Positions 28,735 through 46,540 of a DNA stretch of 64,000 nucleotides are shown piece by piece (within the stretch, counting starts at the first letter, position 1; each line of letters starts with the position of its first letter). Position numbers and translations under genes: made by a program. Source of the DNA: an uncultured Candidatus Saccharibacteria bacterium (GTDB lineage Bacteria > Patescibacteriota > Minisyncoccia > Phycocordibacterales > Zambryskibacteraceae). The stretch is taken from assembly GCA_964582295.1 (NCBI GenBank), contig CAZOQP010000002.1:82268-146267 (forward strand). The letters run 5' to 3'. Under the pieces are notes generated by a model that saw nothing but the letters and a program-made list of their open reading frames with translations, searched no databases and was not told where the DNA came from.

Positions 28735-28771
28735 AGGAGTTTTGGTTGTTGTCGGTAGATTTCAAGGAATC

Positions 28772-29731: not shown

Positions 29732-31343
29732 AAAACTCGAAGTTTCTAATCAAACCTTTATCCTGGAAGTGCCTGAGAACACTTTCTAGCTGATGGGCAT
29801 TGAGACTAGCCTCCCTCATCCATCTATTCCAATCGCTTTGAGGTATATCAATTTGACCTTGTTCTAGATCCCATTCCTCCTTTAGATGCTCGAGAATGAG
29901 CAATCTCTTCTTATCAGCATTATTTGGCTCTCTTTTACTATCAGAAGAAGACTGGGGTGAAGATATAACATTATCTGCAAACAAGCAGAGCTCAACAACT
30001 TTCGCTCTATATTCATTGAACTTATCTCTGTTTTTTACGAGAATATTTCTTCCCTCCACAAACTCTCGAGCCGGTTCGCTACTTATGACGGCAAGACTTA
30101 CCTCGCTTTGAAAACCCAGAGCCCCATTATCAAAGGCGCTTCTCATAACATAGTATAAAGTTCTTTTGTTATCCTCAGAAACCTTGTCCGCAATATTGAT
30201 AGCCTTGTTTATTCGACCAATAGGTGGAAGTTCGTCGTATATAAGATCAAGTATATTTTTTACGGCATACCATCTGTCCTTTTCTTTCTTGAGATCATCG
30301 GGGAACTTTAACGAAGAAACCCTGGATTTCTCTTTCTCTATATCCAGAATTTCCTTTGGAGGGTGCTTGCTGGGGTCTGGGAACTCGTCGGTAAGTTTGA
30401 AAACAACCTCCTCTTTTCTGAAATTCTTTATTGCTAGATTCCCAGCTCTAGCCAAGGCGATGATTGTCTCGTAAAAACGAATATGGTTCTTATCTATTTC
30501 CCAACCACCGAGCTTAGCTAACTCGTTAAAAGTCAAAGCAAGATTCCTGTTGTCATACTTTTTAGAAGCAATCAGTATGGAAGCGCATATCTTTTCTCTT
30601 TGTTGCCTATAGCCGTAATACCTAACACCCCTTGGCTGGTCCAGTTCGTTGAGCATAAAGGCGGTAATATATCCATCGAGTTTTTTGAAGAGTTCTACTT
30701 TATTGATCTTCAAGTTAAAGGTCAAAGCTTTCCAAATTTGGTCTATTGCTCCTCGTTCCGCAAAGATTTTTATATCAACAATTGAGAGCTCCTCTCCATT
30801 TTTAACTTTATTGAAAAGTTTCTCCCCCAAGGAACAAAAATTGTCTATTCTATAGCTTTTTGTAACTTTGCCTGTGCTCGGATGATGGGAAAAGGCCATA
30901 CTTCGAGCAATGAGGTTAGCTTTTTCTTTTTGCGCAGCAATCTTGCGCTCCTCACTTTGATAGTAATCCAGATAACCTTTCGGAATACGAATATTAGATA
31001 TTGTTACTGGCTTAGTAAAGTTATCGTGTAGCTCGATCAAAGCCTTTAAAACCTCCTGGGGACGGAAGTAATAATATCGGTTCTCCAGGTTATCGTGCGG
31101 GCCAATGTCAGTTTTCATTAGCCGCTTCTCAATTCGAGCCAAATAGGCTTCTCTTTCTATCAAATCTACTGACCCTTGTGCTTCCTCAGCTATAAGATCA
31201 CGCTGTTCTGATTCCTCAAAGAAAATAAAATCGCTTACTCTATAGTTTCTCCCCTCAAGCTCATCACTGAGCAGAAGTTTCTCCCAAAGATAAACTTTCC
31301 ATTCAGGCAAATAATGGGTAATTTTCATTGTAATTTCCTTCAA
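29715..31343 (-). CDS. hypothetical protein (542 aa)
   Basis: Long ORF with no recognisable motif. Confidence 0.45.
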   Translation of the reverse strand: MKEITMKITHYLPEWKVYLWEKLLLSDELEGRNYRVSDFIFFEESEQRDLIAEEAQGSVDLIEREAYLARIEKRLMKTDIGPHDNLENRYYYFRPQEVLKALIELHDNFTKPVTISNIRIPKGYLDYYQSEERKIAAQKEKANLIARSMAFSHHPSTGKVTKSYRIDNFCSLGEKLFNKVKNGEELSIVDIKIFAERGAIDQIWKALTFNLKINKVELFKKLDGYITAFMLNELDQPRGVRYYGYRQQREKICASILIASKKYDNRNLALTFNELAKLGGWEIDKNHIRFYETIIALARAGNLAIKNFRKEEVVFKLTDEFPDPSKHPPKEILDIEKEKSRVSSLKFPDDLKKEKDRWYAVKNILDLIYDELPPIGRINKAINIADKVSEDNKRTLYYVMRSAFDNGALGFQSEVSLAVISSEPAREFVEGRNILVKNRDKFNEYRAKVVELCLFADNVISSPQSSSDSKREPNNADKKRLLILEHLKEEWDLEQGQIDIPQSDWNRWMREASLNAHQLESVLRHFQDKGLIRNFEFFGEFE

Positions 31344-31526
31344 ATTTACCCCTTATTTGCCTGTTTTACAATAAAAGATCCGAAAGTTTAGCTCACTTAT
31401 TACGTTTATATTGCTATCCACACTAATGCCTTGAATATGGCATTTTAAGGGAAATCGAGCTATACTATAGCTACTCATCTACCACGAGTAGAAGGAGCAT
31501 CCGAAACCGTCCCGCAAGGGGCGGTT

Positions 31527-32033
31527 TCAGCCTTTTATACGGTTCTGTCTATATTCTTCTCTATCTCGTTCGAATGACTTTATGCGGCGAGGATCAGTTA
31601 CTTGGTAAGCACTAAGTAAAACAAAGTATTGGCTTCTTTTTGCTAAGACTACTGCAAATTGGCCTTTCTCATACCAAATAACCCAATTCTTAGAACTACC
31701 TCTTCTGCTCTCCCAATAGGAAATTATTGACTCATTTTCACAGTTCTTGATAATCCAAGACACCCATCCGATCCGCTTGCAACGCTGGAAGTCAGGAGTT
31801 CTATCCTCTTCTTTTTCTCCCTCTGTTATTAAATGCCAGAAAGTAAAATGTTTCCCTTTCTCCTCAGGGAATCGCCTAGGATTGACTGGTAAGCCTTGAA
31901 AGCGCAACTTATCTTCAACAATAGTCTTCTTAAACACCTCAAAGAGACTTTCTTCATAAGCCTTCCATTCTTCTGTCCGACCGGAGAATTCTATTAATTC
32001 AGGTGGAGTTACATCTATTTCTTCGGACGCCAT
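31527..32033 (-). CDS. hypothetical protein
   Basis: 168-aa ORF overlapping the DUF3800 gene by 19 nt. Confidence 0.4.
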   Translation of the reverse strand: MASEEIDVTPPELIEFSGRTEEWKAYEESLFEVFKKTIVEDKLRFQGLPVNPRRFPEEKGKHFTFWHLITEGEKEEDRTPDFQRCKRIGWVSWIIKNCENESIISYWESRRGSSKNWVIWYEKGQFAVVLAKRSQYFVLLSAYQVTDPRRIKSFERDREEYRQNRIKG

Positions 32034-32713
32034 ATCAGGATATTGAATTTAGACTCATCACGAGATGAGGAGGTGAGCATAACCTCTCCTATCTTGCTCT
32101 CGATCTCTTTAATAACTTGGACCTTGCCACTATTTTTATTAAGACCTCTATGCTTATAAGAAAGTGCACCAGCGAAAATATCGACAAGCTGCATAATCTC
32201 CACCTCATTGGACCTAATCTGTTGTGCTCTGGAGATTGCAATATCCTCTACGCTGGCAATATTGAGTATGCGCTTAAGCTCCATAACCTTTAGATTGCTC
32301 CTGGTATCCTTCATATCAAGATAAAGGTTATACTCCGCATCTTCTCTTATAATAAATTTAAGAAGAAGGTAGAACATCTTGTAATACCAGGTATTGTGAT
32401 CTTGAGAGTAGGCAGAATGGTCAAGAACCGTCTTATCCGGCACCACCACTACCCTAAAATGAAGATCGGGATTATCGAAGAAGTATCTAACTAGCTCGCA
32501 ATAGTATTCAGCTTTTGCTTTGGAGATCTTTGTCCACTTTGCTTCAAAGTGGGGTGGAAGATTGTGCTTTTGCTTTATAGCTCGAATCTCCTCGAAGATT
32601 TGTGAGGTCTTCTCTTTCTCTGCCCATATAGCACCTAGCACAAAGGACTTATTTTTGTCGTTCAACAAGTGACAGCTCTCGTCGCAATAGATATTGTAGG
32701 TTGGCTTAGGCAT
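32015..32713 (-). CDS. DUF3800-family protein
   Basis: N-terminus YNIYCDESCHL and C-terminal QLVDIFAGALSY resemble DUF3800 (DESG...ADxxAG). Confidence 0.5.
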   Translation of the reverse strand: MPKPTYNIYCDESCHLLNDKNKSFVLGAIWAEKEKTSQIFEEIRAIKQKHNLPPHFEAKWTKISKAKAEYYCELVRYFFDNPDLHFRVVVVPDKTVLDHSAYSQDHNTWYYKMFYLLLKFIIREDAEYNLYLDMKDTRSNLKVMELKRILNIASVEDIAISRAQQIRSNEVEIMQLVDIFAGALSYKHRGLNKNSGKVQVIKEIESKIGEVMLTSSSRDESKFNILIWRPKK

Positions 32714-32724
32714 ATTGGTTTTGA

Positions 32725-33357
32725 CTACTTTAATCTACTCCTTTTTCTCAATTTTGCCATATCTTTCCGCATCTCCTCTCTAAATTCTCTCTTAGACTTT
32801 TCAGTCATTTTGTCTCGATGACGAATATAAGACTTCCATTCAGGATTGTGGCGTTCAATTAGCCCTGGGTTATCTTTCTTGAGGAAGATATAGTCAAGGA
32901 TCTTGCCTTCCTCATTAGTAATTTCCCTGGCCACCAACTTCCCTTCCCTGATCATCTTTCTGACCGAAACCGTTCTCACTTTAAACATATCAGCTACTTT
33001 CCACATCCTAAAGAAACTATCGCTATGCTTTATTACATAAGCAGGAATAACACCATTCTTGATCGCTCTGTGGCAATTTAGACATCTTTGACCTCCTTTG
33101 TGATACCAGCCAGTCTGCGGATTGATTGAGGTGTAACATACTAAGCAATTATAAGTTCCTTCGACCGGGAAACCATCTGGCTCTGCTTTTAAGCGTTTCT
33201 CATTTTGAACGTGTCTCTTTGCTACTTCCCAAACTATGTCGAGATAACCAGCAAAATTATGGGCGGCCTCTCTCGCCTTTTCGTCAGTTATTTCCTCCCT
33301 GCTATCCTTCTGCATAATCTCCTTTAGCTCTTGGATTCTTTCTTCTGATAGTTCCAT
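32725..33357 (-). CDS. hypothetical zinc-ribbon protein
   Basis: CLVC...CLNCH pair. Highly charged termini. Confidence 0.4.
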   Translation of the reverse strand: MELSEERIQELKEIMQKDSREEITDEKAREAAHNFAGYLDIVWEVAKRHVQNEKRLKAEPDGFPVEGTYNCLVCYTSINPQTGWYHKGGQRCLNCHRAIKNGVIPAYVIKHSDSFFRMWKVADMFKVRTVSVRKMIREGKLVAREITNEEGKILDYIFLKKDNPGLIERHNPEWKSYIRHRDKMTEKSKREFREEMRKDMAKLRKRSRLK

Positions 33358-33474
33358 AGTCTTATACCTAATTAATAAAATCTGGCCCGTATTTTACACT
33401 CGAAGGTAAAAATGGAAACGGCACCCATTTAGGATGCCGTTCACGTCTAGCGATCTCGCTATAAAAAAGGAAAG

Positions 33475-34374
33475 TTAAACAACCCCCTGTCCGTATCGGA
33501 GCACAAGTATTATAAATAGTGCAGATACTGATATAAGTATGCCCCCAGCAAGCCATATACCTTTGTGATGCCTCTTAAACTCAATAAGAGCCCCAATAAG
33601 CATCAGGCTTGCTATCAGGGCGATAAGTAGGCTATAAAGCCCGATTAGGCTTCGCTTTGGGGATGATACTATTTCCTCAATAATAGAGATGTTGTCTGTA
33701 TAAGCTCCCTCGACTCTCTTTTCTATAGCTTCTGGAATTGCTATCGAGGCCGCCTGCGCCGTAGGTGTTGATCTAACCTCTGTTTTGGGAGTAGCCTTGG
33801 CGACTTGAACTTGCTTTTCAGCAGGGGCCCCGAACATTTGCACAACGAAAGTTGTCTCTCTGCCCTGATACATTCCAACAGCCGTAGCCACTCCTATTTC
33901 CTTAAAATCAGAATTTAGGATATTTGCCTTGTGGCCCGGAGAAGACATCCAAGCATCTGTTACGTCCTTAGAGTCGATGAAATCAATTGCTAAATTCTCT
34001 CCTGCGTATTTGTAAACATATCCTGCCTTTTCTATCCAATACCAAGGTTTCTTTCCATCAGGGCTATTGTGAGCAAAATAGCCCTTCTCTGCCATATCGT
34101 TTGCCTTTAGCTGAGCCGCTTGAGTTAGCAGGTCATTCGGCACAAAAGCAGTTTTTCCCACTGCCTGTCTGTCATCGTTCGTATAAGCGACAACCATTCC
34201 TGCATAAACGGCAGCAAATGAGCTTAGTTTGGGAAGATGGACGAGTATTTTGGATGAGACAAAAAATAATCCAACAAGTGCAATCACAGCAACAATTACT
34301 CCCGTAATCCTGAAAAGGTGGGGATGGTAGTTATTACTGTGATGAGGGACTAGATATTTCTTTACTCGTCTCAT
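33475..34374 (-). CDS. CAP/SCP (YkwD-like) domain membrane protein
   Basis: N-terminal TM, CAP core YFAHNSPDGKKPW...GENLA...WMSSPGHKANIL, and a C-terminal TM. Confidence 0.55.
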   Translation of the reverse strand: MRRVKKYLVPHHSNNYHPHLFRITGVIVAVIALVGLFFVSSKILVHLPKLSSFAAVYAGMVVAYTNDDRQAVGKTAFVPNDLLTQAAQLKANDMAEKGYFAHNSPDGKKPWYWIEKAGYVYKYAGENLAIDFIDSKDVTDAWMSSPGHKANILNSDFKEIGVATAVGMYQGRETTFVVQMFGAPAEKQVQVAKATPKTEVRSTPTAQAASIAIPEAIEKRVEGAYTDNISIIEEIVSSPKRSLIGLYSLLIALIASLMLIGALIEFKRHHKGIWLAGGILISVSALFIILVLRYGQGVV

Positions 34375-34441
34375 ATTTTAATTATGACACGTCAAAAATA
34401 CTCAACTCGCTTGCGAATTGGTATTTACTTGTCTGCTCACT

Positions 34442-34996
34442 TTAGCGGCTACCTGATGCTGCTACTGCCGCAAGCTGTGCTTGAAGCAACTGTATCGCCT
34501 GTTGTATCAGTCCCACAACTCGGGTCTTAAGACTTGCAACCTCTGGACTCTCGACGGTAGTAGATACTACGGTGCTGTTAAGCTGGGCTAGAGTCAGATT
34601 ACCCACATAACCAGTAGTAGGTATGTTGTGTGCTGCCTGATAAGCCATTACTGCCGCCTGGGTAATAGTTCCGAAGTATCCGGTCGGTTCAACACCGAAG
34701 AACCCCTCTGCCTTTAACAGCTTCTGAAGTTCGGTTACTTCTTCCCCTCTAGAACCAAGAGTAAGATGAGAGTCAAACCTGAAACCTGCCTCTCCCAAGA
34801 CTGAACCTGTGTTGATTTGAGCCACAGGAGCAGCCACTACTGGAGGTCTGTTAAACTGTCCAGATCTACCACCAGTTCTGATTACTGAAGGAGGGATTAT
34901 ACCTCCTCCACCTCCACCATACTGTGCATAGCTCGGAGTGGGCATTGCTACAGCAATCAAAGCGGTAATAGCTAATGTTCCAATTATTTTTTTCAT
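34442..34996 (-). CDS. secreted protein with peptidoglycan-binding (PG_binding_1-like) domain
   Basis: Signal peptide MKKIIGTLAITALIAVA, a Gly run, and LGSRGEEVTELQKLLKAEGFF...GYFGTITQAAVMAYQ. Confidence 0.55.
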   Translation of the reverse strand: MKKIIGTLAITALIAVAMPTPSYAQYGGGGGGIIPPSVIRTGGRSGQFNRPPVVAAPVAQINTGSVLGEAGFRFDSHLTLGSRGEEVTELQKLLKAEGFFGVEPTGYFGTITQAAVMAYQAAHNIPTTGYVGNLTLAQLNSTVVSTTVESPEVASLKTRVVGLIQQAIQLLQAQLAAVAASGSR

Positions 34997-35057
34997 TTCC
35001 TTGGATGGATTTACTTTTAATCGCCTAGTTTAACGACTTGTGGCAGGTCGTAGAGAG

Positions 35058-36347
35058 TTACCCCCGAGTAACCCAGCGTTTGTCTCTGGCTGTAAACAAG
35101 GCGTATATGTTGAGCCAATAGAGAAATAGCTCGCGGAGAATTGAATAGACAAATAACCTCCACACCTTCTCTTTGCCCTCTAGGTAAACAAAAATATAGT
35201 GGACGAACATAAACAGGAACCAGCTCGGGAGTATAAATATGAGGAAGAATAACGGCTGGGTAAATATGACAAACAAAATCGCAACTCGTAAGCCAAAGGT
35301 AAAGAATAGCAAGGTTAAATCCCATAAGAGCATTTCAAAAAAGAGTTGCTTTCTGCTTCCCCAAGCATAAGTAAGAGCGTAGATTGCCTCACGGATAAAA
35401 CCTCTCTTCCATCGTAACTGCTGCCTCAAGAAGCTCCTGACAGTCGCTGGAGTTTCTGTATAAGCAATAGCCTCTGCCACATAAGCCACCTCATACTTAC
35501 GCTTTAATATGAGATTTGTTAAGTGCCTGTCGTCAGAGGAGTTGCATTGTTCTCCCAAGAACTCTTGATTTAGAAATTCATCAATTATTTCCTTAATTAT
35601 TGAGGCTTTGTATGCTGATAAGCATCCACTACAGCACTCAACCATCCCTACTGAAGATTGGGCTTTCTTATATACATTCAAGCTAATCCAATAATGTATT
35701 TTTATCAGTCTGGTAAGCCAATTCTGGTTTTCATTCAAGAGAAGTATGTAGCCAGTTGATGCTCCTACACGAGGGTCTTTTAGTGGTTCTACTAATCTCA
35801 CTAAAGCATTCTCATCAAGCACGGTATCACTATCAACTGTTATCACAAATTCACTATCCTGAACCATTTTTGATACTGCGTGATGAAGAGCGTGCCTTTT
35901 ACCCTTATTATTTTCAAAGAGGTGAATTTCAATTTGCGAGTATGTCTTTTGGAGATCCCTTACGACTTTTTCTATTCCCTCTCTTATATCCTTTTTTGAG
36001 CCATCATCAACAAGTAGAATTTTCTTATTTCCTTTGGCGGCAATTATAGACTCTAGGGATTTCTTTAAGAGTTCAGGACGTTCGTTATAACAAGGCACTA
36101 CCACTGCAATAGTTTCATTGTCGTAAGAGGGATATTTGGTTTTCCTAATATCACTTAGGAATAGAAGACCGAAAATATACCAAGTGTAAGTTATAGCTAG
36201 AACAAAATAGACACGAGCGTAAATTGTCCAAAGATTATCATTTAAAGTGATGAAAGAATGGAGGAATACAAAAATAGAAATCCCAAGCAGGACGAATAAA
36301 CATAGGTATATAAGCAACATCAACTGACTATGAGTTATTTTCGGCAT
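35058..36347 (-). CDS. family-2 glycosyltransferase, processive type
   Basis: DDGSKKD, VTVDSDT (DxD), and QQLRWKRG (QxxRW), with multiple TM helices. Confidence 0.7.
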   Translation of the reverse strand: MPKITHSQLMLLIYLCLFVLLGISIFVFLHSFITLNDNLWTIYARVYFVLAITYTWYIFGLLFLSDIRKTKYPSYDNETIAVVVPCYNERPELLKKSLESIIAAKGNKKILLVDDGSKKDIREGIEKVVRDLQKTYSQIEIHLFENNKGKRHALHHAVSKMVQDSEFVITVDSDTVLDENALVRLVEPLKDPRVGASTGYILLLNENQNWLTRLIKIHYWISLNVYKKAQSSVGMVECCSGCLSAYKASIIKEIIDEFLNQEFLGEQCNSSDDRHLTNLILKRKYEVAYVAEAIAYTETPATVRSFLRQQLRWKRGFIREAIYALTYAWGSRKQLFFEMLLWDLTLLFFTFGLRVAILFVIFTQPLFFLIFILPSWFLFMFVHYIFVYLEGKEKVWRLFVYSILRELFLYWLNIYALFTARDKRWVTRG

Positions 36348-36679
36348 ATGTCCTTAGAAGAAAACCTCCAAGAGACCATATGTCGTAAATAACGAAAGCA
36401 TCAAGAAGACGATTACCCAGGTTATTTTCTTTTCTGTGCTCACTTGGATGGATTTGATTGTCTTACGCACAAAGCCCGCCGCCAGGAGCTCTAGGCTTTC
36501 GCCCAGAACGTATAGGTTTCCCCATACGACCATCCAAGGAACCCTGACGACGGGTTTTCTGACTTGGATGGTTTTAGAGCCGTGCCTCTTACGAGGGTTA
36601 GGCTAATTTCCCTACACTTTCACTCACAAGTCAAACTATATTATAATACCCCTATATTGTCAAGGAAAATACGTGGATA

Positions 36680-37711
36680 CTAAAACCAGCTAATCCTTTT
36701 CATCAATTTCTGAGTATTCCCGTGTCTCAAAAGACCTAGGTAAGACTGAATTGTTTCTGTCTTCGCCTCTTTTGCTTGGACAGCATTTAGGGCTCTCCTC
36801 TTAGTTGTAGTCCTTACCACCCGGTGATCAGGAAAATTAACCCAGCCGAGGAAGTCCACTCCAGAGGCGACAGTTTTGGTAAAGACTTTATCCGGGTGAA
36901 GTTCTAGTTTCAATTTTTTCCCAAGAAACTGCCGAATAGTAACCAGGACATTATCCAGCTTCTTCTTATCACCGGAAAGGATAACGAAATCGTCAGCGAA
37001 GCGAATATAGCGCTTGATTTTTAATTCTCTTTTAACAAATTGATCGAGCTCGTTCATATAGATATTTACGAGCAGTTGCGAAGTAAGATTACCTAGTGGC
37101 AATCCCATCCCTTCTTTGACTGGCTGGAAACTATCAACAATCTGATCAAGTAGCCAAAGAATATCCTTGTCAGGAATGTAGTGCTTGAGAATATCTTTCA
37201 GGACGGCGTGATCAATCGTAGCGAAGAACTTCTTTATATCGCACTTCAAAATCCAGACGGTTCTCGTGTGGTTCTGACTCTCGATATAAGCGAAATTCCT
37301 AAATTTCTCTATAGCTTTGTGTGTTCCTTTCTCCAAGCGACAGGAGTAAGAGTCGTGTATAAAAGTCCGGTCGAAAAAGGGATAGAGCACTCTATAAATC
37401 GCGTGATGAAGTAGCCTGTCTCTAACGGCTGCTTTGTGTATATTCCTGGGTTTAGGATCGGAGATATTAAAGGCTTGATAAGGCGAGTGTCGGTAGGTTT
37501 TCTCGGCGAGATCTTTATTTAAAGCTATGATATTACTCATCAAGTTTCGCTCAAAGATCTGCACATCCTTCCTTGAACGCTTACCATTTAGAAACTCCTT
37601 CCAGGCTTGGAGAAGATTTTCAAGAGAAATGATATGCTCATATTTATGAACAAGCCGAATACCCATATAGGTGAGTCTACCCCCCCCCCGCACTTTTGCC
37701 AGTAGTAGCAA
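36680..37711 (-). CDS. DGR-type reverse transcriptase
   Basis: RT motifs: ISDPKPRNIHKAAVRDRL, CDIKKFFATIDH, GLPLGNLTSQLLVNIYMNELD ([I/L]GxxxSQ, typical of DGR RTs), and YIRFADDFVIL (YxDD). About 340 aa with no maturase/endonuclease. The true start is probably the internal Met MGIRLV. Confidence 0.85.
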   Translation of the reverse strand: MLLLAKVRGGGRLTYMGIRLVHKYEHIISLENLLQAWKEFLNGKRSRKDVQIFERNLMSNIIALNKDLAEKTYRHSPYQAFNISDPKPRNIHKAAVRDRLLHHAIYRVLYPFFDRTFIHDSYSCRLEKGTHKAIEKFRNFAYIESQNHTRTVWILKCDIKKFFATIDHAVLKDILKHYIPDKDILWLLDQIVDSFQPVKEGMGLPLGNLTSQLLVNIYMNELDQFVKRELKIKRYIRFADDFVILSGDKKKLDNVLVTIRQFLGKKLKLELHPDKVFTKTVASGVDFLGWVNFPDHRVVRTTTKRRALNAVQAKEAKTETIQSYLGLLRHGNTQKLMKRISWF

Positions 37712-38045
37712 AAGTTAAAAATTGTTATTTAACTTGGATTACTTACCAAAACAATCTGCCAAAAGTGCAGAAATATTCTCTCGGTTTAAGAATTGAGAGT
37801 CTGTTCGTGGAAACAATTGAAGCAGCATCTATCGCTTGGTTTCTTCCCCAGCAGGAGAAGCAACCTTATATCCGTTTAGCCATAAGGAAATGGGACACTC
37901 TCAAAGTCTTACTGCTAATTCTCTGGGAGGCAAAAGGTATCGATAATAAAAAATATATTAACTTATCCGTTCCTATGGAAGAAGTAGGAAGGATGCTTGG
38001 AGGATGGAATGGGCAGATCACTGCTAAACAAAACTCCCCTGCAAG

Positions 38046-38181
38046 AGCAGGAGAGAAATGAAAAGACTTTCGGGGCGAGGAACACGAAACCGTTCTCACG
38101 ATTCCACCTGTTGTCGGAGTTGCCGTTGTAGGCGTTGAGCCACCGGCCTTCGTCGTTGCGGTTGAGACCGAGAACGTTCGG
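38046..38181 (-). repeat. DGR template repeat (TR), 136 bp
   Basis: Aligns to 38593..38728 with 19 mismatches, all at TR T on the given strand (A on the coding strand). Its pseudo-ORF is Asn(AAC)-rich: GNPNVLGLNRNDEGRWLNAYNGNSDNRWNRENGFVFLAP. Confidence 0.8.
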
Positions 38182-38469
38182 ATTGCCATCGGAATCGGTT
38201 ATGTATAAAGCACCTCCCGCGCCACTACCCATAAGAGAGCACCAGGCTCAATCCACAGGCTGTATCGAATGCCGCATCGTAATGCGATAGTGCTCTATAC
38301 CAAGTATCTTCATTTTTTGAAGAGTCTACATAAGCCCTCCGTCTGAAACCGTAGTCTCAGGCGCTCTCAGCTTATGGATACTGGGGTCGGTAGCGGGACA
38401 CCGTAGCCTCCCGCATATTCACCTACTGCCGTTGCTTATCTTAATTGAAATTTTTTACAAAAGGAAAGC

Positions 38470-38490
38470 CCGAGCGAAGTGCTCGGGCCG
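38470..38490 (-). other. GC hairpin gcccgag-cgaagtg-ctcgggc ~100 nt downstream of the VR (candidate DGR cruciform/homing element)
   Basis: 7-bp GC stem. Its position downstream of the VR is analogous to the hairpin required for retrohoming in the Bordetella phage DGR. Confidence 0.3.
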
Positions 38491-38587
38491 GAGTTTGGGA
38501 CACGCTGTTCTCCAGAGCGTGATGGGCGCGGGGCCCAAGGGCAAAGGTCAAAGGATCTAAAAGACCCAAGTGACCAAGTGCTAAGAA

Positions 38588-39253
38588 CTACTCTTGCGGG
38601 GCGAGGAACACGAAACCGTACTCACGACCCCACCTGTCGTCGGAGTAGCCGAAGTAGGCGTCGAGCCACCGGCCCGCGTCGACGCGGAGGAGACCGAGAA
38701 CGATCGGAGGGCCATCGGAATCGGTGATCGGCTCGTGCATCACGATGAGCCAGTAAAGTCCCATCGCGGCGATCTCTTCGTCGGAGACAGACTTCCGCAA
38801 CAGCCGAGCGAGTTCGGCTGTCGGCGTGATGAGCCCCATCTCCTCGGCAACCTTGCGGATGTTCGAGGTGACGCGCTCGTCGTCGGTGAAGCACTCACCT
38901 TTGAGCACCACAGGCTTGTAGGTCACGCCATTGCTGACGACGTAGGACTTCTGCTTCATCACGTCCTTGGCCCAGTCGCCCACGTTGTAGCGGGCCTTCT
39001 CGAGGTCCTTGATGCCGTCCTTACCGGAGACACCGTCGGAGACCACGAGATTGAGCGCCACCGGCGTGATGACATTCTTCTCCGGGGCCTTCGGCTCGAC
39101 CATCTTGATCTCGGCGCGTCCTTCGAGGAGCGCCTTAACCGACGTGAGCCGCCCCCGGGAGGTCAGTGCCTTGAGCTGGTCGGCCGTGAAGCCGTCCGCC
39201 TCGAAAGCGTCTGCCAGTTCGTTCATCTGTCCGATCGTGTAGAGTGAGGACAT
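38588..39253 (-). CDS. DGR target (variable) protein; C-terminal variable region, likely C-type-lectin/FGE-like fold
   Basis: C-terminal ITDSDGPPIVLGLLRVDAGRWLDAYFGYSDDRWGREYGFVFLAPQE corresponds to the TR. The gene is conspicuously GC-rich compared with its flanks. Start taken at MSSLYT (ORF track starts at 39313). Confidence 0.8.
   Translation of the reverse strand: MSSLYTIGQMNELADAFEADGFTADQLKALTSRGRLTSVKALLEGRAEIKMVEPKAPEKNVITPVALNLVVSDGVSGKDGIKDLEKARYNVGDWAKDVMKQKSYVVSNGVTYKPVVLKGECFTDDERVTSNIRKVAEEMGLITPTAELARLLRKSVSDEEIAAMGLYWLIVMHEPITDSDGPPIVLGLLRVDAGRWLDAYFGYSDDRWGREYGFVFLAPQE
38593..38728 (-). repeat. DGR variable repeat (VR) at the 3' end of the target gene
   Basis: See TR. The VR ends at the target stop codon (38588..38590). 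Confidence 0.8.
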
Positions 39254-39422
39254 CGTCCCCTCCTTGGCACATCGTGCCTGTTTGTGATTAACGATTGCTG
39301 GGCCCCTTGCCACAGCGGAGAAAGCCCATTTAAGGCTCTTTCCGCTATGGCAAGTAAGAGTAGTTATTACAAAGATCTACTATTGTTAGTATAGCACCTT
39401 TTGGCTTTTCTGTCAAGGACTG

Positions 39423-39788
39423 TTAATCGAAGGGGGTAGAAATTCCTGCTGCGCGTCCTACTTCAAAAATCACCCTCGCTTCTAGTTGTCTTACCCGGTT
39501 GCCGCTTATGCCTCCAAAGTTCTTACCAGTCTCCGCAAGTGTATGTCGGACACCATCTTTTAATCCGTTTCGGAACTCAAACATCTCACAATACCTCTCC
39601 TTAAGTTTTAAGAGGTGCTTTAACTCTTTATAGGGCTGGATGAATGCCTCGGCGACCGGCTTTCTCATAGTTTGATTATAACCCTTGTCAAAGGTATAGG
39701 CGAGTGTTAATCTACTCCTGCGCGGAAATTTTGGCTCTAAGCGGAAATTCTGTTTTTGCTCTGAAATATCCCATATTACCAATGACAA
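39423..39788 (-). CDS. hypothetical protein
   Basis: 121-aa ORF with no motif recognised. Confidence 0.35.
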   Translation of the reverse strand: MSLVIWDISEQKQNFRLEPKFPRRSRLTLAYTFDKGYNQTMRKPVAEAFIQPYKELKHLLKLKERYCEMFEFRNGLKDGVRHTLAETGKNFGGISGNRVRQLEARVIFEVGRAAGISTPFD

Positions 39789-40663
39789 ATACCTATATGA
39801 TGAAAATAAAACCGCTCTTTAGGGACCTCCCTATTGAGCACGTGGAACGCGACCCAGACCAGCCGCGCCGAGATTTCGGAGTTGGCGGAGACCAGAACAG
39901 GCTCCTGAAGTCTATAGAGACTTATGGCATTGAAGAACCTATTAAGGTGAGTGAGGTTGAGAAGGATCGGTATGTGATTGTCGATGGGCATCGTAGATAT
40001 ATTTGCGCCCAGAGATTAGATTTAAAGACCATCCCCTGCCGAATCTATCCAAAGATGACTGATGGAGAGCTTGAGGCTCGAAGATATGAAATACAGAACA
40101 ACCGAAGAAATTGGAAACCTATGGAGAAATCCAACTCCCTCCATAGAATCAAAACCAAGTTTGGTTTGAATACCAATAGAGAGCTTGCGGATGTTTTAGG
40201 TCTCTCGATTACCATTATTGCTAACTCTCTTCAGATTAGAGATGTAAAAGTAGATTATGTAGAGCTGATGGAAAAGTATGGCCTCTCACAAAGCAATCGC
40301 ACTGAGTTTATCCGTCTCAAGAATAAGCTAAGAAAAATAAAGGACCTAGAAATCGACGACATAGTTCAGATCATTTTTGAAAAGACTCAGAACAATGTTA
40401 TCCGAAATGCTAAGGACTTTCGCAAGTTGGGCAAAATTTTCTTGAGAGCTACTGCCAATGAAAAGGAGCTCTACGCCTTTCTTACCGATCCGGATATGAC
40501 TATCGATGAGCTAGATCAGAGGACCATTCAGTCCGGCTTTTCACTCCTTGTCGAACAAGCAATCCAGGCCATAGCTTCAAAGCGTAAGGATGGAATCGCA
40601 TTCAGTTCAAAGGAAAAGACTCTTCTTACTCAGCTTCGTAATCTCCTACAAAAGGCATTCTAG
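39782..40663 (+). CDS. ParB-like nuclease (ParB/Srx) domain protein
   Basis: IEHVERDPDQPRRDFG...LLKSIETYGIEEPIKV...YVIVDGHRRYICAQRL is a ParB N-terminal domain. Start uncertain; alternative ATGs at 39704 and 39794. Confidence 0.6.
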   Translation: MTNTYMMKIKPLFRDLPIEHVERDPDQPRRDFGVGGDQNRLLKSIETYGIEEPIKVSEVEKDRYVIVDGHRRYICAQRLDLKTIPCRIYPKMTDGELEARRYEIQNNRRNWKPMEKSNSLHRIKTKFGLNTNRELADVLGLSITIIANSLQIRDVKVDYVELMEKYGLSQSNRTEFIRLKNKLRKIKDLEIDDIVQIIFEKTQNNVIRNAKDFRKLGKIFLRATANEKELYAFLTDPDMTIDELDQRTIQSGFSLLVEQAIQAIASKRKDGIAFSSKEKTLLTQLRNLLQKAF

Positions 40664-40666
40664 TTT

Positions 40667-42007
40667 ATGTTGTCTATTAGCCAGGCTCGGACTCGAAAAG
40701 CAGTAGCATATTACCGACATTCAGCGGAAGACAAACAAGAAAACTCGGTTGGTATTCAACGTGGGCACGCAGAGAAATTTGCTAAGCAGTTTCAAATTGA
40801 AATAATCCACGAGGAAGCTGACGAGGGTAAAAGTGGCCTTCTCTCAAACAGGCCTGGATTCGAGAAGCTTTTTAACGATTGGATATTAAATGATACTGCT
40901 CCCGAATTTGAGTATGTGCTTGTTTATGACGTATCTCGGTGGGGCCGTTTCCAAGATCAGGATGAAGCTGCCTACTACGAGTTCAGATGTAAGCAAATGG
41001 GCAAAAAGGTCATCTATGTGTCCCGAGGCTTCCCCAAGGAGGAACAACAGCTTATAAGCCACCTACAGACCTCTATAGAGCGTTATATGGCGGCTGAATA
41101 CTCTCGTCAGCTCAGCGATAAGGTCTTTTACGGCTGCGTAAAGGTATCCGAACAGGGATACTCTGCCGGTGGCACTCCCTGCTATGGTATGGCCAGACTA
41201 CTCTTAGATGTAAATAAAAAGCCTATCCGCATACTTAAGAAAGGAGAGCATAAGCAGATTGCCAATGAGCGCGTAACATTTACCCCACTCAATGACAGCT
41301 CTACCAAGGCTATTCAAAAGATGTTTAGGCTTCTGGTGGAGGACTGGTATGACCCGAGCGAAATAGCCAGAGTGCTTAACGAAGAGAAGATTCTTTCAGC
41401 AAATGGTGGAAAATGGACTAGGGATAAAATAATTAAAATACTCACCAATGAGACCTACACTGGTGCCCGCATCTACAACAAAACCTGGCATAGACTTAAG
41501 CAGAAAATGAGACGTAATCCCCGCTCTGAGTGGGTCATCTCTGAAAATGCTTTTCCTGCCGTAGTTAAGCGAGAGATGTTTATCAAAGCCCAGGAGCATC
41601 TCTACTGGCTTATGCCTTCTAAGTGGAAGAGGGGTATCTACACAATCAGGAAGATAAATACTCTCTTTAAGGCAGAGACTCAAGACATTCTTCTGAAGAA
41701 GCAGATTGATGAGGATACTATCTACCACCTGATGAATGAACTACCACTCCTTTTCTGTGTGAGATTTTATCGAGACTCAGTGCCGCATTGGTGCTTTATT
41801 ATTCCTGAAAGAGTAAGAAACTTCGAGAAGGTGCTTGGGGTTAGCGTAAGCATCGACACCTTTGATCCCATCGAAAGAATATTCCTCATCCCAAGTTCTG
41901 ACTTCAACGAAGTAAACTGCCTTGTCTTTTCTGAAAGTGATCCTTGCTTTAAAGATTACATCATCGAGCGAGAGAATGTTAGGGACACGCTTTCAGCAAT
42001 CGTCTAG
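40667..42007 (+). CDS. large serine recombinase
   Basis: AVAYYRHSAEDKQENSVGIQR...LVYDVSRWGR resolvase catalytic domain plus a recombinase domain. Confidence 0.8.
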   Translation: MLSISQARTRKAVAYYRHSAEDKQENSVGIQRGHAEKFAKQFQIEIIHEEADEGKSGLLSNRPGFEKLFNDWILNDTAPEFEYVLVYDVSRWGRFQDQDEAAYYEFRCKQMGKKVIYVSRGFPKEEQQLISHLQTSIERYMAAEYSRQLSDKVFYGCVKVSEQGYSAGGTPCYGMARLLLDVNKKPIRILKKGEHKQIANERVTFTPLNDSSTKAIQKMFRLLVEDWYDPSEIARVLNEEKILSANGGKWTRDKIIKILTNETYTGARIYNKTWHRLKQKMRRNPRSEWVISENAFPAVVKREMFIKAQEHLYWLMPSKWKRGIYTIRKINTLFKAETQDILLKKQIDEDTIYHLMNELPLLFCVRFYRDSVPHWCFIIPERVRNFEKVLGVSVSIDTFDPIERIFLIPSSDFNEVNCLVFSESDPCFKDYIIERENVRDTLSAIV

Positions 42008-42238
42008 GGCTCTCCAAGTTTTACCTCTGTTTGATATTCCTCCAATCAGGTAAAGGGAGTTTGATTACGAAGGAGAATGGGATAAGTTTGCTCTGCTCTG
42101 ACCAGGTGGCGTGTCTTATTGTGTTCAGACTATGCCTATACTTAATTTCATTCCGAAATAATAGCTTAATTAAGCTATTTTACGAGCGGTTTTATTTTAC
42201 TCCGGTTTTATTTGAACCAGCCCTTTGGGTAATTATGT

Positions 42239-42634
42239 CTAGTTAAATTGCACTTGAAAACTGTACATCCCCATACTGCAAACCCCCCGAAGCGGCTCCC
42301 CCGCTTTTGGCACACCAAGATCAATGATCTCTTCTCCTCTTTGAGCCAGAACCTTTTTAAAACCAATCGAACGGATCACGAGTGCTGCCGAACAGTCGTA
42401 AGTGCCGTTTGTTTTGATTACGAGTTTCGTGGGGATACCGGCCTGTGCTTCAGATACTTTCGGCCAATATCCGCCTTTTGCATCTACCGTAATGTATTGA
42501 ACGCCATCCTTTATTTCTATATTCTGCACATCCCCATCTCCAGGCCCGCCGTTCTTTGATAGTAAAGCACCAAAAAATATGAGCCCTGAACCGAGAACAA
42601 CTGCGGATATAATGATTGAAGCGGTTTTACTCAT
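42239..42634 (-). CDS. cupredoxin-like small secreted protein (copper operon)
   Basis: N-terminal TM/signal. C-terminal CSAALV...CSMGMYSFQV resembles a cupredoxin-type metal site. Start taken at MSKTASII. Confidence 0.4.
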   Translation of the reverse strand: MSKTASIIISAVVLGSGLIFFGALLSKNGGPGDGDVQNIEIKDGVQYITVDAKGGYWPKVSEAQAGIPTKLVIKTNGTYDCSAALVIRSIGFKKVLAQRGEEIIDLGVPKAGEPLRGVCSMGMYSFQVQFN

Positions 42635-42641
42635 ATTGCAA

Positions 42642-43649
42642 TTATATGTTGAATAAGGGGTTAATAATGCCAAGTCCCGCAAGACCGGCGAGAAGCGCGA
42701 ATATTCCGAGACCTACCACCACAACACCTGCTGATTTAAAGAACAAGGGTGCATGTTTTGAGTGAGCGAATGAAGCGGACCCGAAGGAAAGGAGTACAAG
42801 CATCGGCAAAGTTCCCAGTGCAAATGCGAACATGATCAAGAATCCTGAAAGAAACGAACCGCTTGAAAGAGCGGCTACCTGCATTGATTGCGTAAAGCCG
42901 CACGGCAGGAAAAATGTCCCAAAACCAATGATGAGAGGCGTGAGTGTCTTATGTTCTATCTTTCTGAAGAAATCAAAAATTCCCGATGGCAGCGCAATTT
43001 TATTTTTCGCAAACACTCCGAGTAAATTCAAACCGAGGAAGAGCATCACCACGGAGGCCAGAAGCCCTAGGATGGCTGAAAATGTAAAGCTTATACCTAT
43101 TGCATTGCCGATGAGCCCAAGCACCCCGCCGAGCACAGCGAAGCTCACCAATCTTCCAGTGTGAAAAAGCAGAAAAGTTTTGGTATCGCTTACATTATCC
43201 TGAGATATTTTTGCCGAAAGCGAGAGCACCAGCCCACCAACTATCGCGAGACAGCTTGAAACCGAGGCGATGAGTCCTATCAAAAAACTTGTAGCGGGCG
43301 TCGTCGCCCCACCCAGGCCCAAATTCAAAATACCCGACTTTTGTAAAAGAAAGAACAGAGCAAGGAATCCAAGTCCGATCGGGACGGCCTGCCAAATAAC
43401 ATTATTGTTTTGCTTTTCCGAAGCAAGTTTTTCTACCGACAAGGTGTAGCCGTTCTGCCTAATCTTTTCAGTGAGGATATGGGCGAGCTCCTCCGGGTTC
43501 TTTTCGCTATCAGTAATGATATCAACAGTTTCCCCCTTCAGGTCCACCAGTGCACTTTTTACAAAACTCTCTCCATTTAGAACATTCTCTATCAGCATCT
43601 TGCATGATGCGCAGTGAGTTCCTGAAACATGGAATGTGTATGTTTTCAT
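42642..43649 (-). CDS. HMA domain fused to a CcdA/DsbD-like polytopic permease
   Basis: N-terminal GTHCASC (MxCxxC HMA). Membrane part has Cys in two TM segments (SSCLAIVGG, FLPCGF). Confidence 0.5.
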   Translation of the reverse strand: MKTYTFHVSGTHCASCKMLIENVLNGESFVKSALVDLKGETVDIITDSEKNPEELAHILTEKIRQNGYTLSVEKLASEKQNNNVIWQAVPIGLGFLALFFLLQKSGILNLGLGGATTPATSFLIGLIASVSSCLAIVGGLVLSLSAKISQDNVSDTKTFLLFHTGRLVSFAVLGGVLGLIGNAIGISFTFSAILGLLASVVMLFLGLNLLGVFAKNKIALPSGIFDFFRKIEHKTLTPLIIGFGTFFLPCGFTQSMQVAALSSGSFLSGFLIMFAFALGTLPMLVLLSFGSASFAHSKHAPLFFKSAGVVVVGLGIFALLAGLAGLGIINPLFNI

Positions 43650-43702
43650 ATTATTTTATTTATAGTGATTTATGGTGAGTCTGTCGAACCAGCGCAGTCG
43701 AA

Positions 43703-46000
43703 CTATAGCTTCATAGCTTTGATCCTAAGCGAATTAGAAACGACAGAAACACTCGAGAATGCCATTGCGAGACCCGCGAATACCGGGTTCAGGAGCCAGC
43801 CGAAGATCGGATAAAACACTCCGGCCGCAAGAGGAATACCTAGAACATTGTAGATAAACGCCCAAAATAGATTTTGTTTGATGCCACGCATAGTCATTTT
43901 TGAAAGCTTGATGGCTTTCACTAGCTTTGAAATGTCTCCGCCGAGAAGTGTGATACCTGCTGATTCAATGGCTACGTCCGTACCGGTGCCCATAGCAATG
44001 CCGATGTCCGCCTGTGCGAGTGCTGGCGCGTCGTTCACTCCGTCGCCCGCCATGGCCACCACATTGCCTTGGGATTGCAACTCTTTTATTTTCTTGAGCT
44101 TATCCTCGGGCAACACATGGGCGACCACTTCATCAATACCTACAAGCGACGCCATGTATTTTGCCGCCTTCTCATCGTCTCCTGTAAGCATGACAACTTT
44201 TATTCCGAGCTTATGAAGGTCTTTTACCGCCTGTTTTGATTCAGTTTTTATTTCATCAGCGACCATAACAAATCCAAGGACTTTTTCTTTTGTTGCAAGA
44301 ATGACCGGTGTTTTTCCTTGTGCTGTAAATTTTTCTATCTGAGAAGTGTCAAACGTCACACCGAGTTCCTTCATGAGCTTCGCATTGCCCGCATAATATT
44401 CGACACCTCCAATCGTTCCTTTGATCCCCCTGCCCTGAAGACCTTCAAAATCCGAAATATTTTCTATTTTCATCTGTCCATCTGTCATCCCAGGTTCTTC
44501 CACATAGTTCACGATCGCATGAGCAATGGGATGCTCCGATTTCTTTTCGAGCGATGCGAGGATGGAAACCAGTTCCCTATTGTCCATATCGGAGAGGTTT
44601 TGTATATCAACGAGCGTCGGTTTGCCAATGGTTATAGTTCCTGTCTTGTCGACGATAACTGTGTTCACTTTATGAAGTTTCTCTAATGTGGCTGCATCTT
44701 TTATGAGTATCCCTTCTTTTGCTCCTTTGCCCACCCCCACAATGATCGCTGTAGGTGTGGCCAAGCCGAGTGCACACGGGCAGGCAATAACGAGAACTCC
44801 GACGAACGAGACGAGGCCAAAAGAAAGCGCCTGCGAAAATCCGAATGAGCTTGTGCCAAGCAAAAGCCATACTCCCAACGCGAGAAATGCGATGATAAGT
44901 GTGATAGGTACGAAGACGCTTGATATTTTATCTGCAAGTGCCTGTATCGGAGCTTTGCTTCCTTGCGCCTCTTCCACCATTTTTATGATCTGAGCAAGCA
45001 ATGTTTCCGAGCCGACTTTTGTGGCCTCAAACGTGAACGTGCCGCTTGTGTTTATCGTACCCGCGACAACGCTGTCGCCGACCTTCTTCTGTGTCGGCAT
45101 CGGCTCACCTGTAACCATTGATTCATCTACGAATGACTCCCCGTCGGCTATCACTCCGTCGACGGGGATCTTTGCTCCCGGCTTTATGATGATAAGGTCC
45201 CCGTGTTTTACTTCACTCACTGAAATTTCTATTTCTTTGCCCTCGCGAATAACAAGCGCGATTTTTGCCTGAAGATTCAGGAGCTTCTCAATTGCATCCC
45301 CGGTCTTTATCTTTGAGCGGGCTTCCAGATATTTCCCGAGTGCGATGAATGCAATGACGATTATCGTTACGTCGTAGTAAGTATTTTCCACATTTATAAA
45401 TGGTTTGAGTACATCCTCAAATGCCGTAACGGCAAAGCTGTAAAGAAACGCTGACGCCGTGCCGATACCAATGAGTGTGTCCATATTCGCCTTGCCATAA
45501 CGAAGGAAGCGGTAAAAGCCGAGAAGGTATGGTTTACCCACTACAAAAAGCATATATGTCGCCATGATTGGCAGGAGGTGATGGAAAAACTCCTCCGTGG
45601 TAATACCTATTTCTGGAACTACTCCGTATTTGGCCAGAATCTCCCACCCCATGACAAAAAAGCTGATGATGGCGAGAGGGATCGCTGAGATAACTTTCAC
45701 TCTCATGTCAGCTACTTCAGCAAGTTTTTCCTGTTTTGATTGATTGAGCCCGAGATGTGCCGCATGTTCATCGGCAGACATACCCATTTCGCTTGCACTG
45801 AGAGAATATCCGAGTGGCTCCAGCTTTTTGTTAAAATGTTCCTGGCTTGTCTTGGATTCGTCGAAAGTTATCCTAGCTTTTTCCGTTCCATTATTGACGG
45901 AGATATCATCCACACCGTCAATCTTTTTTACCGTCCTTTCCACAATGGAAGCGCACGAGGCGCAGTGCATTCCTTTTACCCTGTAGTGTGCGCTTTTCAT
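43703..46000 (-). CDS. copA: copper-translocating P1B-type ATPase
   Basis: N-terminal [14 protein letters not shown] ([12 protein letters not shown]), DKTGTIT, and [10 protein letters not shown]. Start taken at MKSAHYRV. Confidence 0.9.
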
Positions 46001-46001
46001 A

Positions 46002-46268
46002 TTATTTGGACTTAAGCTTATAAATTTTAAGGATCTCGCCCGTCGCCTTCTTCTCATCTCCATGTTTCATCTGGTGCATTACATGAGTTTCCAAATGATT
46101 CTGCAGGATAAGACTCCCGACGCCTGAGAGTGCTTCTCTGGCCGCTTCTATCTGGGTAATTATGTCAACACAATACTTTTCTCCGTCCACCATTTCCTCA
46201 ATACCCCTGACCTGTCCGGCAATGATAGCCAACCGGCGCTTTGAGTTTTTCTGTATATCTTTTCTCAT
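46002..46268 (-). CDS. csoR: CsoR/RcnR-family copper-sensing repressor
   Basis: [35 protein letters not shown] is the DUF156/CsoR signature, with conserved Cys and His. Confidence 0.8.
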
Positions 46269-46274
46269 GACTTC

Positions 46275-46302
46275 AATATACCCCCCCAGGGTATACTGTC
46301 AA
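46275..46302 (-). promoter_or_regulatory. csoR promoter with candidate CsoR operator in the spacer
   Basis: Minus strand reads cTTGACAgtataccctgggggggTATATTgaagtcATG. The GC palindrome ATACCC..GGGTAT between -35 and -10 resembles known CsoR operators. The mRNA is nearly leaderless. Confidence 0.5.
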
Positions 46303-46394
46303 GTAAAGATAGTGGACAAAAGCACTTGACTTTTTCATATATCCTGTTATATAATAGGGATGGAACCCAACAACTAACCTCAGAGGTGATACCA

Positions 46395-46526
46395 ATGTCA
46401 CAGGATGCACAGTCCGTCATCAACAGCTTACCTACCCCGCAGAAGAATGCGGATGAAGCCCGTGACCGCGCCCTTGAGCAGAAAAAGAAGCGCGACACGC
46501 AATCAAAACCGCCATCAGAAACTTGA
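46395..46526 (+). CDS. small hypothetical protein (43 aa)
   Basis: ATG preceded by a gaggtga RBS and a TTGACT-17-TATAAT promoter (~46326..46354). Followed by a terminator. Confidence 0.3.
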   Translation: MSQDAQSVINSLPTPQKNADEARDRALEQKKKRDTQSKPPSET

Positions 46527-46540
46527 TGGCGGTTTTCGTT
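46504..46540. terminator. bidirectional hairpin aaaccgccatcagaaacttgatggcggtttt
   Basis: 11-bp stem with a T run. Lies between convergent genes. Confidence 0.45.

Follow-up and report, generated by a model that had tools for sequence, protein, structure and literature searches.

A chromosomal diversity-generating retroelement in a Zambryskibacteria-like genome and the RNA and possible regulatory features of its clade

Does a reverse transcriptase gene that lies beside a short repeated sequence in the genome of an uncultured bacterium belong to a complete diversity-generating retroelement (DGR), and if it does, is this element still at work? In this study we aimed to answer these questions for a stretch of 64,000 nucleotides of contig CAZOQP010000002.1, which we call the window and in whose coordinates all positions are given. 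A previous description made from the letters of the DNA, here called the sequence-only reading, had proposed a complete DGR composed of a reverse transcriptase (RT), a template repeat (TR) and a target gene with an adenine-mutagenised variable repeat (VR), and each test that we ran supports this. We are highly confident that the locus is an intact and probably active chromosomal DGR of the clade specific to the Candidate Phyla Radiation (CPR), with architecture B3, in a Zambryskibacteria-like genome. The DGR itself is an ordinary member of a class known as common in CPR bacteria, and as such it adds one further well-resolved example. The main interest of the locus lies in RNA and regulatory features found across its clade, more than in the DGR itself.

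The cassette and its class

A repeat search of the region finds a single long direct repeat, of 136 nt and 86% identity, whose two copies are the TR and the VR (Table 1; the minus strand is the coding strand of TR, target and RT). The sequence-only reading had given the length, the VR coordinates and the number of mismatches exactly, and its translations of both copies were reproduced; the TR, put at ~38046..38181, had been placed 21 nt too low. When the substitutions of the pairwise alignment are tabulated by TR base on the coding strand, all 19 mismatches fall on TR adenines and none on the 101 non-A positions, as had been claimed (7 A>T, 6 A>C and 6 A>G from TR to VR). The probability that all 19 would fall on adenine by chance, given 35 A among the 136 nt of the TR, is 5.4e-14 (hypergeometric). 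Most of the changes (16/19) affect codon positions 1 or 2, and every one of the ten TR Asn codons (8 AAC and 2 AAT) is recoded in the VR. Variation of these ten codons alone would allow 15^10, or ~6e11, proteins. The 3' ends of the two copies have an A-free, GC-rich 21-mer in common, GGTTTCGTGTTCCTCGCCCCG, which is followed by CAAGAG in the VR and by AAAGTC in the TR. We take this as a putative initiation of mutagenic homing (IMH) site in the VR, matched in the TR by an IMH* that differs from it, both at the 3' ends of their repeats, a combination by which DGRs are recognised. No further VR copies are found in the window.

The open reading frame (ORF) 36680..37711 on the minus strand had been read as an RT with the motifs LPLGNLTSQ and FADD, and this is confirmed. 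Both motifs are present (the first containing LGNLTSQ), and the protein matches the Pfam family RVT_1 (1e-23) and the PHROG reverse transcriptase family (1e-110). The likely start is the ATG at 37666, and the identical 328-aa product is already on record. One could suppose that this is not a DGR, and that a group II intron, retron or defence RT happens to lie beside an ordinary partial gene duplication which has drifted. The top NCBIfam match of the RT would fit such a view, as it is a group II intron RT/maturase model, found with 154 bits and under its cutoff of 300. However, the closest PDB relative is the RT of the Bordetella phage DGR ribonucleoprotein (8ub7_A, 6e-45), 21 orders of magnitude ahead of the best group II RT (5e-24), which agrees with the earlier assignment of the RT to the DGR type. 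Drift would also not confine 19/19 differences to a single base on a single strand (P = 5e-14), a gene for Avd accompanies the RT, and the Rfam search finds no group II intron RNA. Furthermore, the arrangement recurs in dozens of loci: the related loci with an RT have the same order of target, TR, antisense avd and RT, each with its own adenine-specific TR/VR pair. We consider it extremely improbable that the locus is anything other than a DGR.

The accessory protein Avd is predicted from both its sequence and its modelled structure. The product of the gene that we annotate as avd matches the NCBIfam model DivGenRetAVD over the full model (8e-14, under the curated cutoff), the Pfam family bAvd (4e-7, curated cutoff missed) and the PHROG family 'Avd protein of DGR' (2e-11). 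Its single-sequence AlphaFold2 model is a four-helix bundle, and the best PDB matches of this model are S23/IVS-family proteins, the Avd structure 4dwl and the Avd chains of 8ub7, with TM scores of 0.6-0.7 and probabilities of 0.94-1.0; for 4dwl and the 8ub7 chains the probabilities are 0.94-0.98.

The first survey of CPR-type DGRs is reportedly that of Paul et al. in 2017. Wu et al. 2018 (PMC5758913) describe architecture B3, with the order TR-(avd)-RT and avd on the opposite strand, as making up 90% of their CPR DGR set, and the order, the opposite-strand avd and the CPR host are all found here. The order target-TR-RT on one strand, as proposed before, is right in that these three lie on the minus strand, but it passes over the antisense avd (37696..38061, +) between TR and RT. 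It had also been thought unusual that the target is small and has no signal peptide. This is instead typical of the class, as CPR (clade 2) DGR targets typically show no transmembrane domain and no other domain that can be recognised (Roux et al. 2021, PMC8144416), and no signal peptide, transmembrane segment or Pfam domain is found in the target protein here. The likeness to CPR-type DGRs further includes the C-terminal position of the VR in the target, the Patescibacteria/CPR host and the location in the chromosome rather than in a phage. The cassette itself thus shows no departure from its class. Features that are unmentioned in the CPR DGR literature examined are a structured RNA 5' of the TR, a simple repeat in the avd-RT gap, CTTnG repeats that follow the VR and an excess of GC at third codon positions (GC3) in the target, all of which are described below.

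The DGR of Bordetella phage BPP-1, with the order mtd-avd-TR-Sp-brt, and its bRT-Avd-RNA ribonucleoprotein (PDB 8ub7 series; bioRxiv 10.1101/2023.10.23.563531) offer a more distant comparison. The RTs are homologous (6e-45) and the motifs PKPR and [I/L]GxLTSQ are kept, Avd is predicted to have the same four-helix fold, and the mutagenesis is adenine-specific. In both systems the TR seems to need flanking RNA, sequences upstream and downstream of the TR can pair (the stop duplex of BPP-1), and the TR is followed immediately on its 3' side by a stem-loop. In contrast to BPP-1, where avd is in sense orientation upstream of the TR, avd is here antisense between TR and RT. A large RNA of 226 nt lies 5' of the TR, whereas BPP-1 needs 20 nt upstream and the 140-nt Sp 3' of the TR. 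The TR RNA apparently has its own terminator here and is probably not co-transcribed with the RT, no hairpin follows directly after the IMH, and the target protein is cellular and soluble, whereas that of BPP-1 is a phage tail fibre.

Whether the element is still at work can be judged from close relatives. L116 and L117 are one 2,359-nt locus from two samples, with a cassette ~80% identical to the one in the window. They have identical TRs and differ from each other at 9 positions, 8 of them in the VR, and these 8/8 are at TR adenines. In L118, a Zambryskibacteria metagenome-assembled genome (MAG), the cassette has 90% identity over 2.3 kb and the TR agrees at 136/136 positions, while the VRs differ. 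The adenine-only change of the VR in L116/L117 and the TR identity with L118 therefore argue that the lineage is diversifying and that its template is strongly constrained. Going by these comparisons, the DGR lineage is active.

It may be asked whether the copy in the window is nevertheless a real DGR that is now silent, with TR/VR differences that record past activity and with RT and Avd turned off, for instance through the length of a poly-G tract. A hypermutable-looking G10 indeed lies between the starts of avd and RT, the tract is not equally long in all relatives, and in-frame stops are found in the RT or avd of some related loci, such as L011 with three. The evidence for activity also comes from relatives and not from this window's population. 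Against this, the RT, avd and target ORFs are all intact, the perfect conservation of the TR on a 10% diverged background argues for ongoing selection on the template, and a sister cassette has undergone a recent adenine-only VR change. A silent copy seems unlikely to us, and we favour an intact and probably active DGR.

The in-frame stops appear in tblastn alignments of RT or avd, and besides L011, where all three are in the RT, they were seen in L020 and in ~15 metagenome loci. Some of them probably lie in an untranslated leader, and others may mark decayed copies.

A structured RNA that carries the template

Comparison of related loci shows that the surroundings of the TR are conserved as well. 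The order VR, ~330 nt, RNA, TR, (avd), RT is found in at least 13 genome loci and ~55 metagenome loci, and ~50-80 related loci keep the 5' structured RNA, the long-range helix, the avd-RT poly-G tract and the high target GC3. The 390-nt interval between VR and TR is more than a spacer. In all related loci it contains, in order, a run of degenerate nnCTTnG motifs, a hairpin that resembles a terminator, an AT-rich stretch that includes a -10-like box and a conserved element of ~226 nt. This element passes directly into the TR, and the 3' strand of its helix P3 ends at the TR start.

The secondary structure proposed for this domain is strongly reflected in covariation. For 16 genome loci we find 55 consensus pairs, 43 with compensatory changes, and 96.1% of the alignment cells are paired, compared to 78.9 ± 0.8% in column shuffles and 40-47% with slid partners. 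Length variation is found at the helix tips. The covariance model built for the domain (R1) has one match in the window, with 198 bits. We ran it on 80 metagenome loci that were chosen by RT similarity alone (the RT has >560 metagenome relatives). Where at least 800 nt are available upstream of the RT, the domain is present at full length in 54 of 56 of these loci, and each time it ends at the TR start. The majority of the RT-selected loci have targets without detectable relation to the target described here. Among 61 metagenome hits 94.4% of the cells are paired against 68.6% after shuffling, and 52/55 pairs are compensated, in an alignment (A5) that was fitted to the model. The loci considered for the domain are the window, L006-L030, L036-L115 and L116-L118.

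The single-sequence minimum free energy fold of the 421-nt RNA is indistinguishable from shuffles (z = -1.7), and therefore the case for an RNA structure rests on covariation. The domain has no Rfam 15 match at E<=1, and we found no description of a 5' RNA domain of CPR DGRs in the literature searched, which covers the CPR DGR literature in part. Loci that have only an orphan target homologue do not contain the domain. In two further loci, L057 and L058, avd and RT are present, but neither the RNA domain nor a TR/VR pair could be detected. The loops of P1 and P2 carry similar motifs, GNUYAMGGYU.

A proposed long-range helix of this RNA would join both sides of the TR. The segment directly after the TR is conserved, with the consensus CAACUCUCUUCAUUU, and is complementary to AAAUGAAGAUACUUG; in the window the strand at this place is AAAGUCUUUUCAUUU. 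Across 48 distinct sequences, 76.5% of the cells of the 15 proposed pairs are paired, compared to 69.9 ± 0.7% in shuffles, of which 0/500 reach the observed value, and to 39-46% with slid partners. Double changes number 49, against 20 ± 3 in shuffles, and the duplexes of cognate strands exceed those of non-cognate strands in stability (permutation p < 2e-4).

A further conserved hairpin stands just 3' of the TR, and its stem covaries (alignment A3). Handa et al. found that cDNA synthesis on the Bordetella phage RNA is stopped, beside the primer duplex, by a duplex formed between sequences on either side of the TR, and that Avd binds to a stem-loop immediately 3' of the TR. According to these authors, comparable RNA elements occur in CPR DGRs. 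By analogy, the TR 3' hairpin described here is possibly a stem-loop that binds Avd.

A possible mechanism and its control

How might the expression of RT and Avd be set? The short gap between the two divergent genes holds a tract of ten G on the RT strand, which is the only G/C run of at least 8 nt in the window. A simple repeat is found at this junction in 71/78 related loci; 65 of them have poly-G (G6-G14, with a mode of 10), 4 have (GA)n and 2 have (GT)n. In 730 kb of loci, 68/71 of the G/C runs of at least 8 nt are located at the avd-RT junction. The tract also differs in length between close relatives, being G10 in the window and G9 in L118, and G8 in L018 and G9 in L019, two loci that otherwise differ by one substitution in 2.8 kb. 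Both L018 and L019 are low-coverage assemblies, and the length differences seen could partly be homopolymer sequencing error. We discarded the idea that the tract is coding, as a GGG motif in an N-terminal extension of the RT, because the frames are not the same and, in many loci, stops separate the tract from the ATG.

Contingency loci in promoters are known from the (TA)n repeats of Haemophilus hifA/hifB and the poly-G of Neisseria porA. The avd-RT tract resembles them in being a hypermutable repeat in the short gap of divergent genes, in varying in length among close relatives, and in that some members have other simple repeats in its place. It is unlike them in that it is known from sequence alone and may be a G-rich ribosome-binding site of the RT. 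The tract may thus be either a contingency (phase-variation) switch or an unusually long RT ribosome-binding site. We found no link between DGRs and homopolymeric tracts in the literature searched. The repeat is a candidate for population-level on/off control of targeted hypermutation.

From the anatomy of the locus we infer the ends of the transcript, the roles of the RNA elements and the activity of this copy, and propose the following mechanism. A dedicated non-coding RNA of ~400 nt would be made from its own promoter and consist of the 226-nt 5' domain, the 136-nt TR and the 3' hairpin with its U-run. RT and Avd, made from the adjoining divergent genes, would bind this RNA. The long-range helix, between the segment 5' of P3 and the segment 3' of the TR, would together with P3 bring the TR ends side by side, and these apposed ends would fix the start of cDNA synthesis at the TR 3' end and its stop at the TR 5' end at P3, parallel to the primer and stop duplexes of the Bordetella phage DGR RNA. 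The RT would misincorporate opposite template adenines and the cDNA would replace the VR at the 3' end of the target. In this way the 10 Asn codons and a few others, which belong to a C-type-lectin-like binding surface, would be recoded, and at least 6e11 protein variants would be possible. By analogy with Bordetella, the proposed mechanism would be the known one, except that the 5' RNA module is much larger and the TR transcript seemingly ends before the RT gene.

In its full form the proposal reaches further. CPR DGRs of this clade would use an undescribed ~400-nt RNA (the TR with a five-helix 5' domain of 226 nt) whose TR ends are clamped by the long-range helix, and the level of RT and Avd would be set by a hypermutable poly-G (or GA/GT) tract, so that hypermutation is stochastically on or off within a population. 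We put this forward tentatively, as a whole that is rather doubtful. Several points also count against our main interpretation, that of an intact and probably active DGR working as outlined above. Two positions of the long-range helix are usually mismatched, the test of this helix used a hand-anchored alignment, and the helix competes with a local hairpin (CUUCA-A6-UGAAG) with which it is mutually exclusive. The fit of alignment A5 to the model favours structure in the metagenome covariation counts. A consensus sigma-70 promoter for the TR RNA was not detected in the window. The Avd scores stay under the curated cutoffs of NCBIfam and Pfam, and a profile of the Avd alignment gave no match among PDB sequences. 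Lastly, the activity seen in L116/L117 is that of a sister cassette with ~80% identity and not that of this copy. As for the competing hairpin, it is possible that the RNA switches its conformation between the long-range helix and the local A-loop hairpin.

To our knowledge, the Bordetella phage is so far the one system in which the function of DGR RNA has been dissected. The covariance model and base-pairing scheme for the template-carrying RNA cover a large clade, and its DGRs offer a second, differently organised system in which the priming and stopping of DGR cDNA synthesis can be studied.

Genomic setting, composition and the target family

The coordinates of all features are collected in Table 1.

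Table 1. Features of the DGR locus and its surroundings (window coordinates)
Feature	Position	Strand	Remarks
Template repeat (TR)	38067..38202	-	136 nt; 35 A; 8 AAC and 2 AAT codons
Variable repeat (VR)	38593..38728	-	final 136 nt of the target gene; A-free IMH-like GGTTTCGTGTTCCTCGCCCCG at the 3' end
DGR reverse transcriptase	36680..37666	-	328 aa from ATG 37666; ORF open back to TTG 37711
avd accessory gene	37696..38061	+	121 aa, TTG start; antisense to TR and RT, between both
Target (variable protein) gene	38588..39253	-	221 aa; N-terminal three-helix module and putative C-type-lectin-like domain
Structured RNA domain	38201..38438	-	~226 nt; P1, P2, A-loop hairpin, P3 enclosing P4 and P5
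Proposed long-range helix, upstream strand AAAUGAAGAUACUUG	38301..38315	-	just 5' of P3; also the 3' arm of the local A-loop hairpin
Proposed long-range helix, downstream strand AAAGUCUUUUCAUUU	38056..38070	-	overlaps the last 4 nt of the TR
TR 3' hairpin CUCUCCUGC...GCAGGGGAG + UUUUGUUU	38024..38055	-	terminator-like; overlaps the last avd codons on the other strand
Homopolymer G10 (RT strand)	37680..37689		in a gap of 29 nt that separates the start codons of the divergent genes avd and RT
Promoter-like site of target	39388..39416	-	TTGACA, 17 nt, TG-TATACT; consensus 11/12, extended -10; kept in L118
Long hairpin, target 5'-UTR (untranslated region)	39309..39351	-	16 bp; contains the GTG taken as ORF start; kept in L118, loop changed
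nnCTTnG array	38534..38587	-	six degenerate 7-8-nt repeats directly 3' of VR and stop codon
Terminator-like hairpin and T-run	38457..38489	-	hairpin 38467-38489; would end the target transcript; ~100 nt past the VR
LOOT RNA (Rfam RF03000)	36491..36604	-	71.5 bits, threshold 46.4; 76 nt past the RT stop; promoter 36635-36663
Block absent from L118	~25615-36690		~11 kb directly after the RT stop
Block absent from L118	~39420-46540		~7 kb upstream of the target promoter

Is the cassette cargo of a mobile element? The sequence-only reading had placed it inside a putative integrated element, and this does not hold. The neighbours of the cassette in L118 are a flavodoxin-like gene on one side and, on the other, a GTPase-like gene with a tRNA synthetase gene after it; their matches in the window are at 46545-47099, 25258-25614 and 23473-23949, respectively. 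L118 therefore has the cassette at the same chromosomal position without either of the two blocks that adjoin it in the window, each of which contains a recombinase gene, and the DGR is therefore best seen as resident chromosomal DNA flanked by insertions and not as the cargo of one element. The ~11-kb block holds a large serine recombinase (25544-27190), a phage-type replication-protein homologue (31527-32033), DUF3800, CAP, a peptidoglycan-binding protein, a GT2 glycosyltransferase and a LOOT RNA, and the ~7-kb block a sigma-like protein, ParB, a second serine recombinase (40667-42007) and metal-transport genes, with DsbD/HMA and a P-type ATPase. We considered the LOOT RNA as a component of the DGR and rejected it; it is absent from 12 related loci (8 with an RT), has its own consensus promoter and belongs to the insertion that L118 lacks.

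The target gene stands out by its composition. Its GC3 is 0.85 and its GC content 62% in a window of 45% GC, making it the sole compositional outlier among ~58 ORFs, while the GC3 of all other ORFs is 0.28-0.62 (RT 0.46, avd 0.35). This could raise the suspicion that the GC-rich target arose as an artefact of chimeric assembly or was inserted very recently from a foreign source, and that its linkage to the RT is spurious. Yet the TR, which lies on the AT-rich side beside avd, matches the VR, and the same join is seen in independent assemblies (L118 with 90% identity, L116/L117 with 80%). Moreover, in 33/36 independent loci the target, taken without its VR, has a higher GC3 than the RT, with a mean excess of +0.16 (Wilcoxon 4e-7). 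The contrast is therefore a property of the clade, and we give the idea of a spurious join hardly any credence.

Several explanations for the GC3 excess were examined. A-depletion by mutagenesis does not fit as its source, because outside the VR A exceeds T on the coding strand and T is depleted at third positions too. Recent transfer among the sampled loci is unsupported, as the targets are no more alike between loci (38-57% identical) than the RTs (53-62%). Translational selection is an unlikely cause, given that the ribosomal protein genes of the window have a GC3 of 0.46-0.62, and amino-acid composition likewise fails to account for the excess. The GC3 excess may bear on the expression or the acquisition of targets.

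For the target gene, the sequence-only reading gave 38588..39313 and rightly found the VR at its end, but the true start is the ATG at 39253, which is preceded by AAGGAGG; the GTG at 39313 lies within a hairpin of the 5'-UTR. The 221-aa product is 100% identical to P0001. The promoter, the 5'-UTR hairpin and the strong AAGGAGG ribosome-binding site are all three kept in L118. In Rfam the only match of the 5'-UTR hairpin is a chance-level hit to S35.

On the other side of the gene, the nnCTTnG motifs are about eight-fold enriched in the 80 nt after the VR, with a mean of 3.8 against 0.46 elsewhere in 49 related loci, and their spacing peaks at 7-8 nt. Several copies read ACUUGG, which is an invariant motif of the RNA domain too. 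The GC hairpin that had been noted downstream of the VR at 38470..38490 is real and lies at 38467-38489. It looks like an intrinsic terminator because a T-run follows, and at a distance of ~100 nt it is not a hairpin that abuts the IMH as in BPP-1. An equivalent hairpin with a T-run is found after the target in related loci.

The model of the target protein suggests a C-type-lectin-like fold, and the DGR proteins TvpA and Mtd are among its hits. A Foldseek search of the target model against the PDB gave no significant match. Structures for comparison are the C-type-lectin-fold DGR proteins Mtd (1yu0) and TvpA (2y3c) and the FGE-like or EgtB C-terminal domains. A profile search assigns 3,210 cluster representatives at 50% identity to the target family, and hosts of target homologues include Zambryski-, Falkow-, Moran-, Kerfeld- and Andersenbacteria and Paceibacterota MAGs. 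In relatives of the target (P0051, P0052 and P0006), its N-terminal three-helix module (~50 aa) also occurs fused to unrelated C-terminal domains, and one of these domains resembles another VR type. In P0006 the lectin-like domain is tandemly duplicated. For many target homologues (L001-L005, L009, L012-L014, L017, L022, L023, L027, L028 and L031-L035), neither a TR nor the RNA, avd or RT is found within 6 kb, and these homologues are either remote targets or orphans. The homologue in L001 is found among glycosyltransferase genes.

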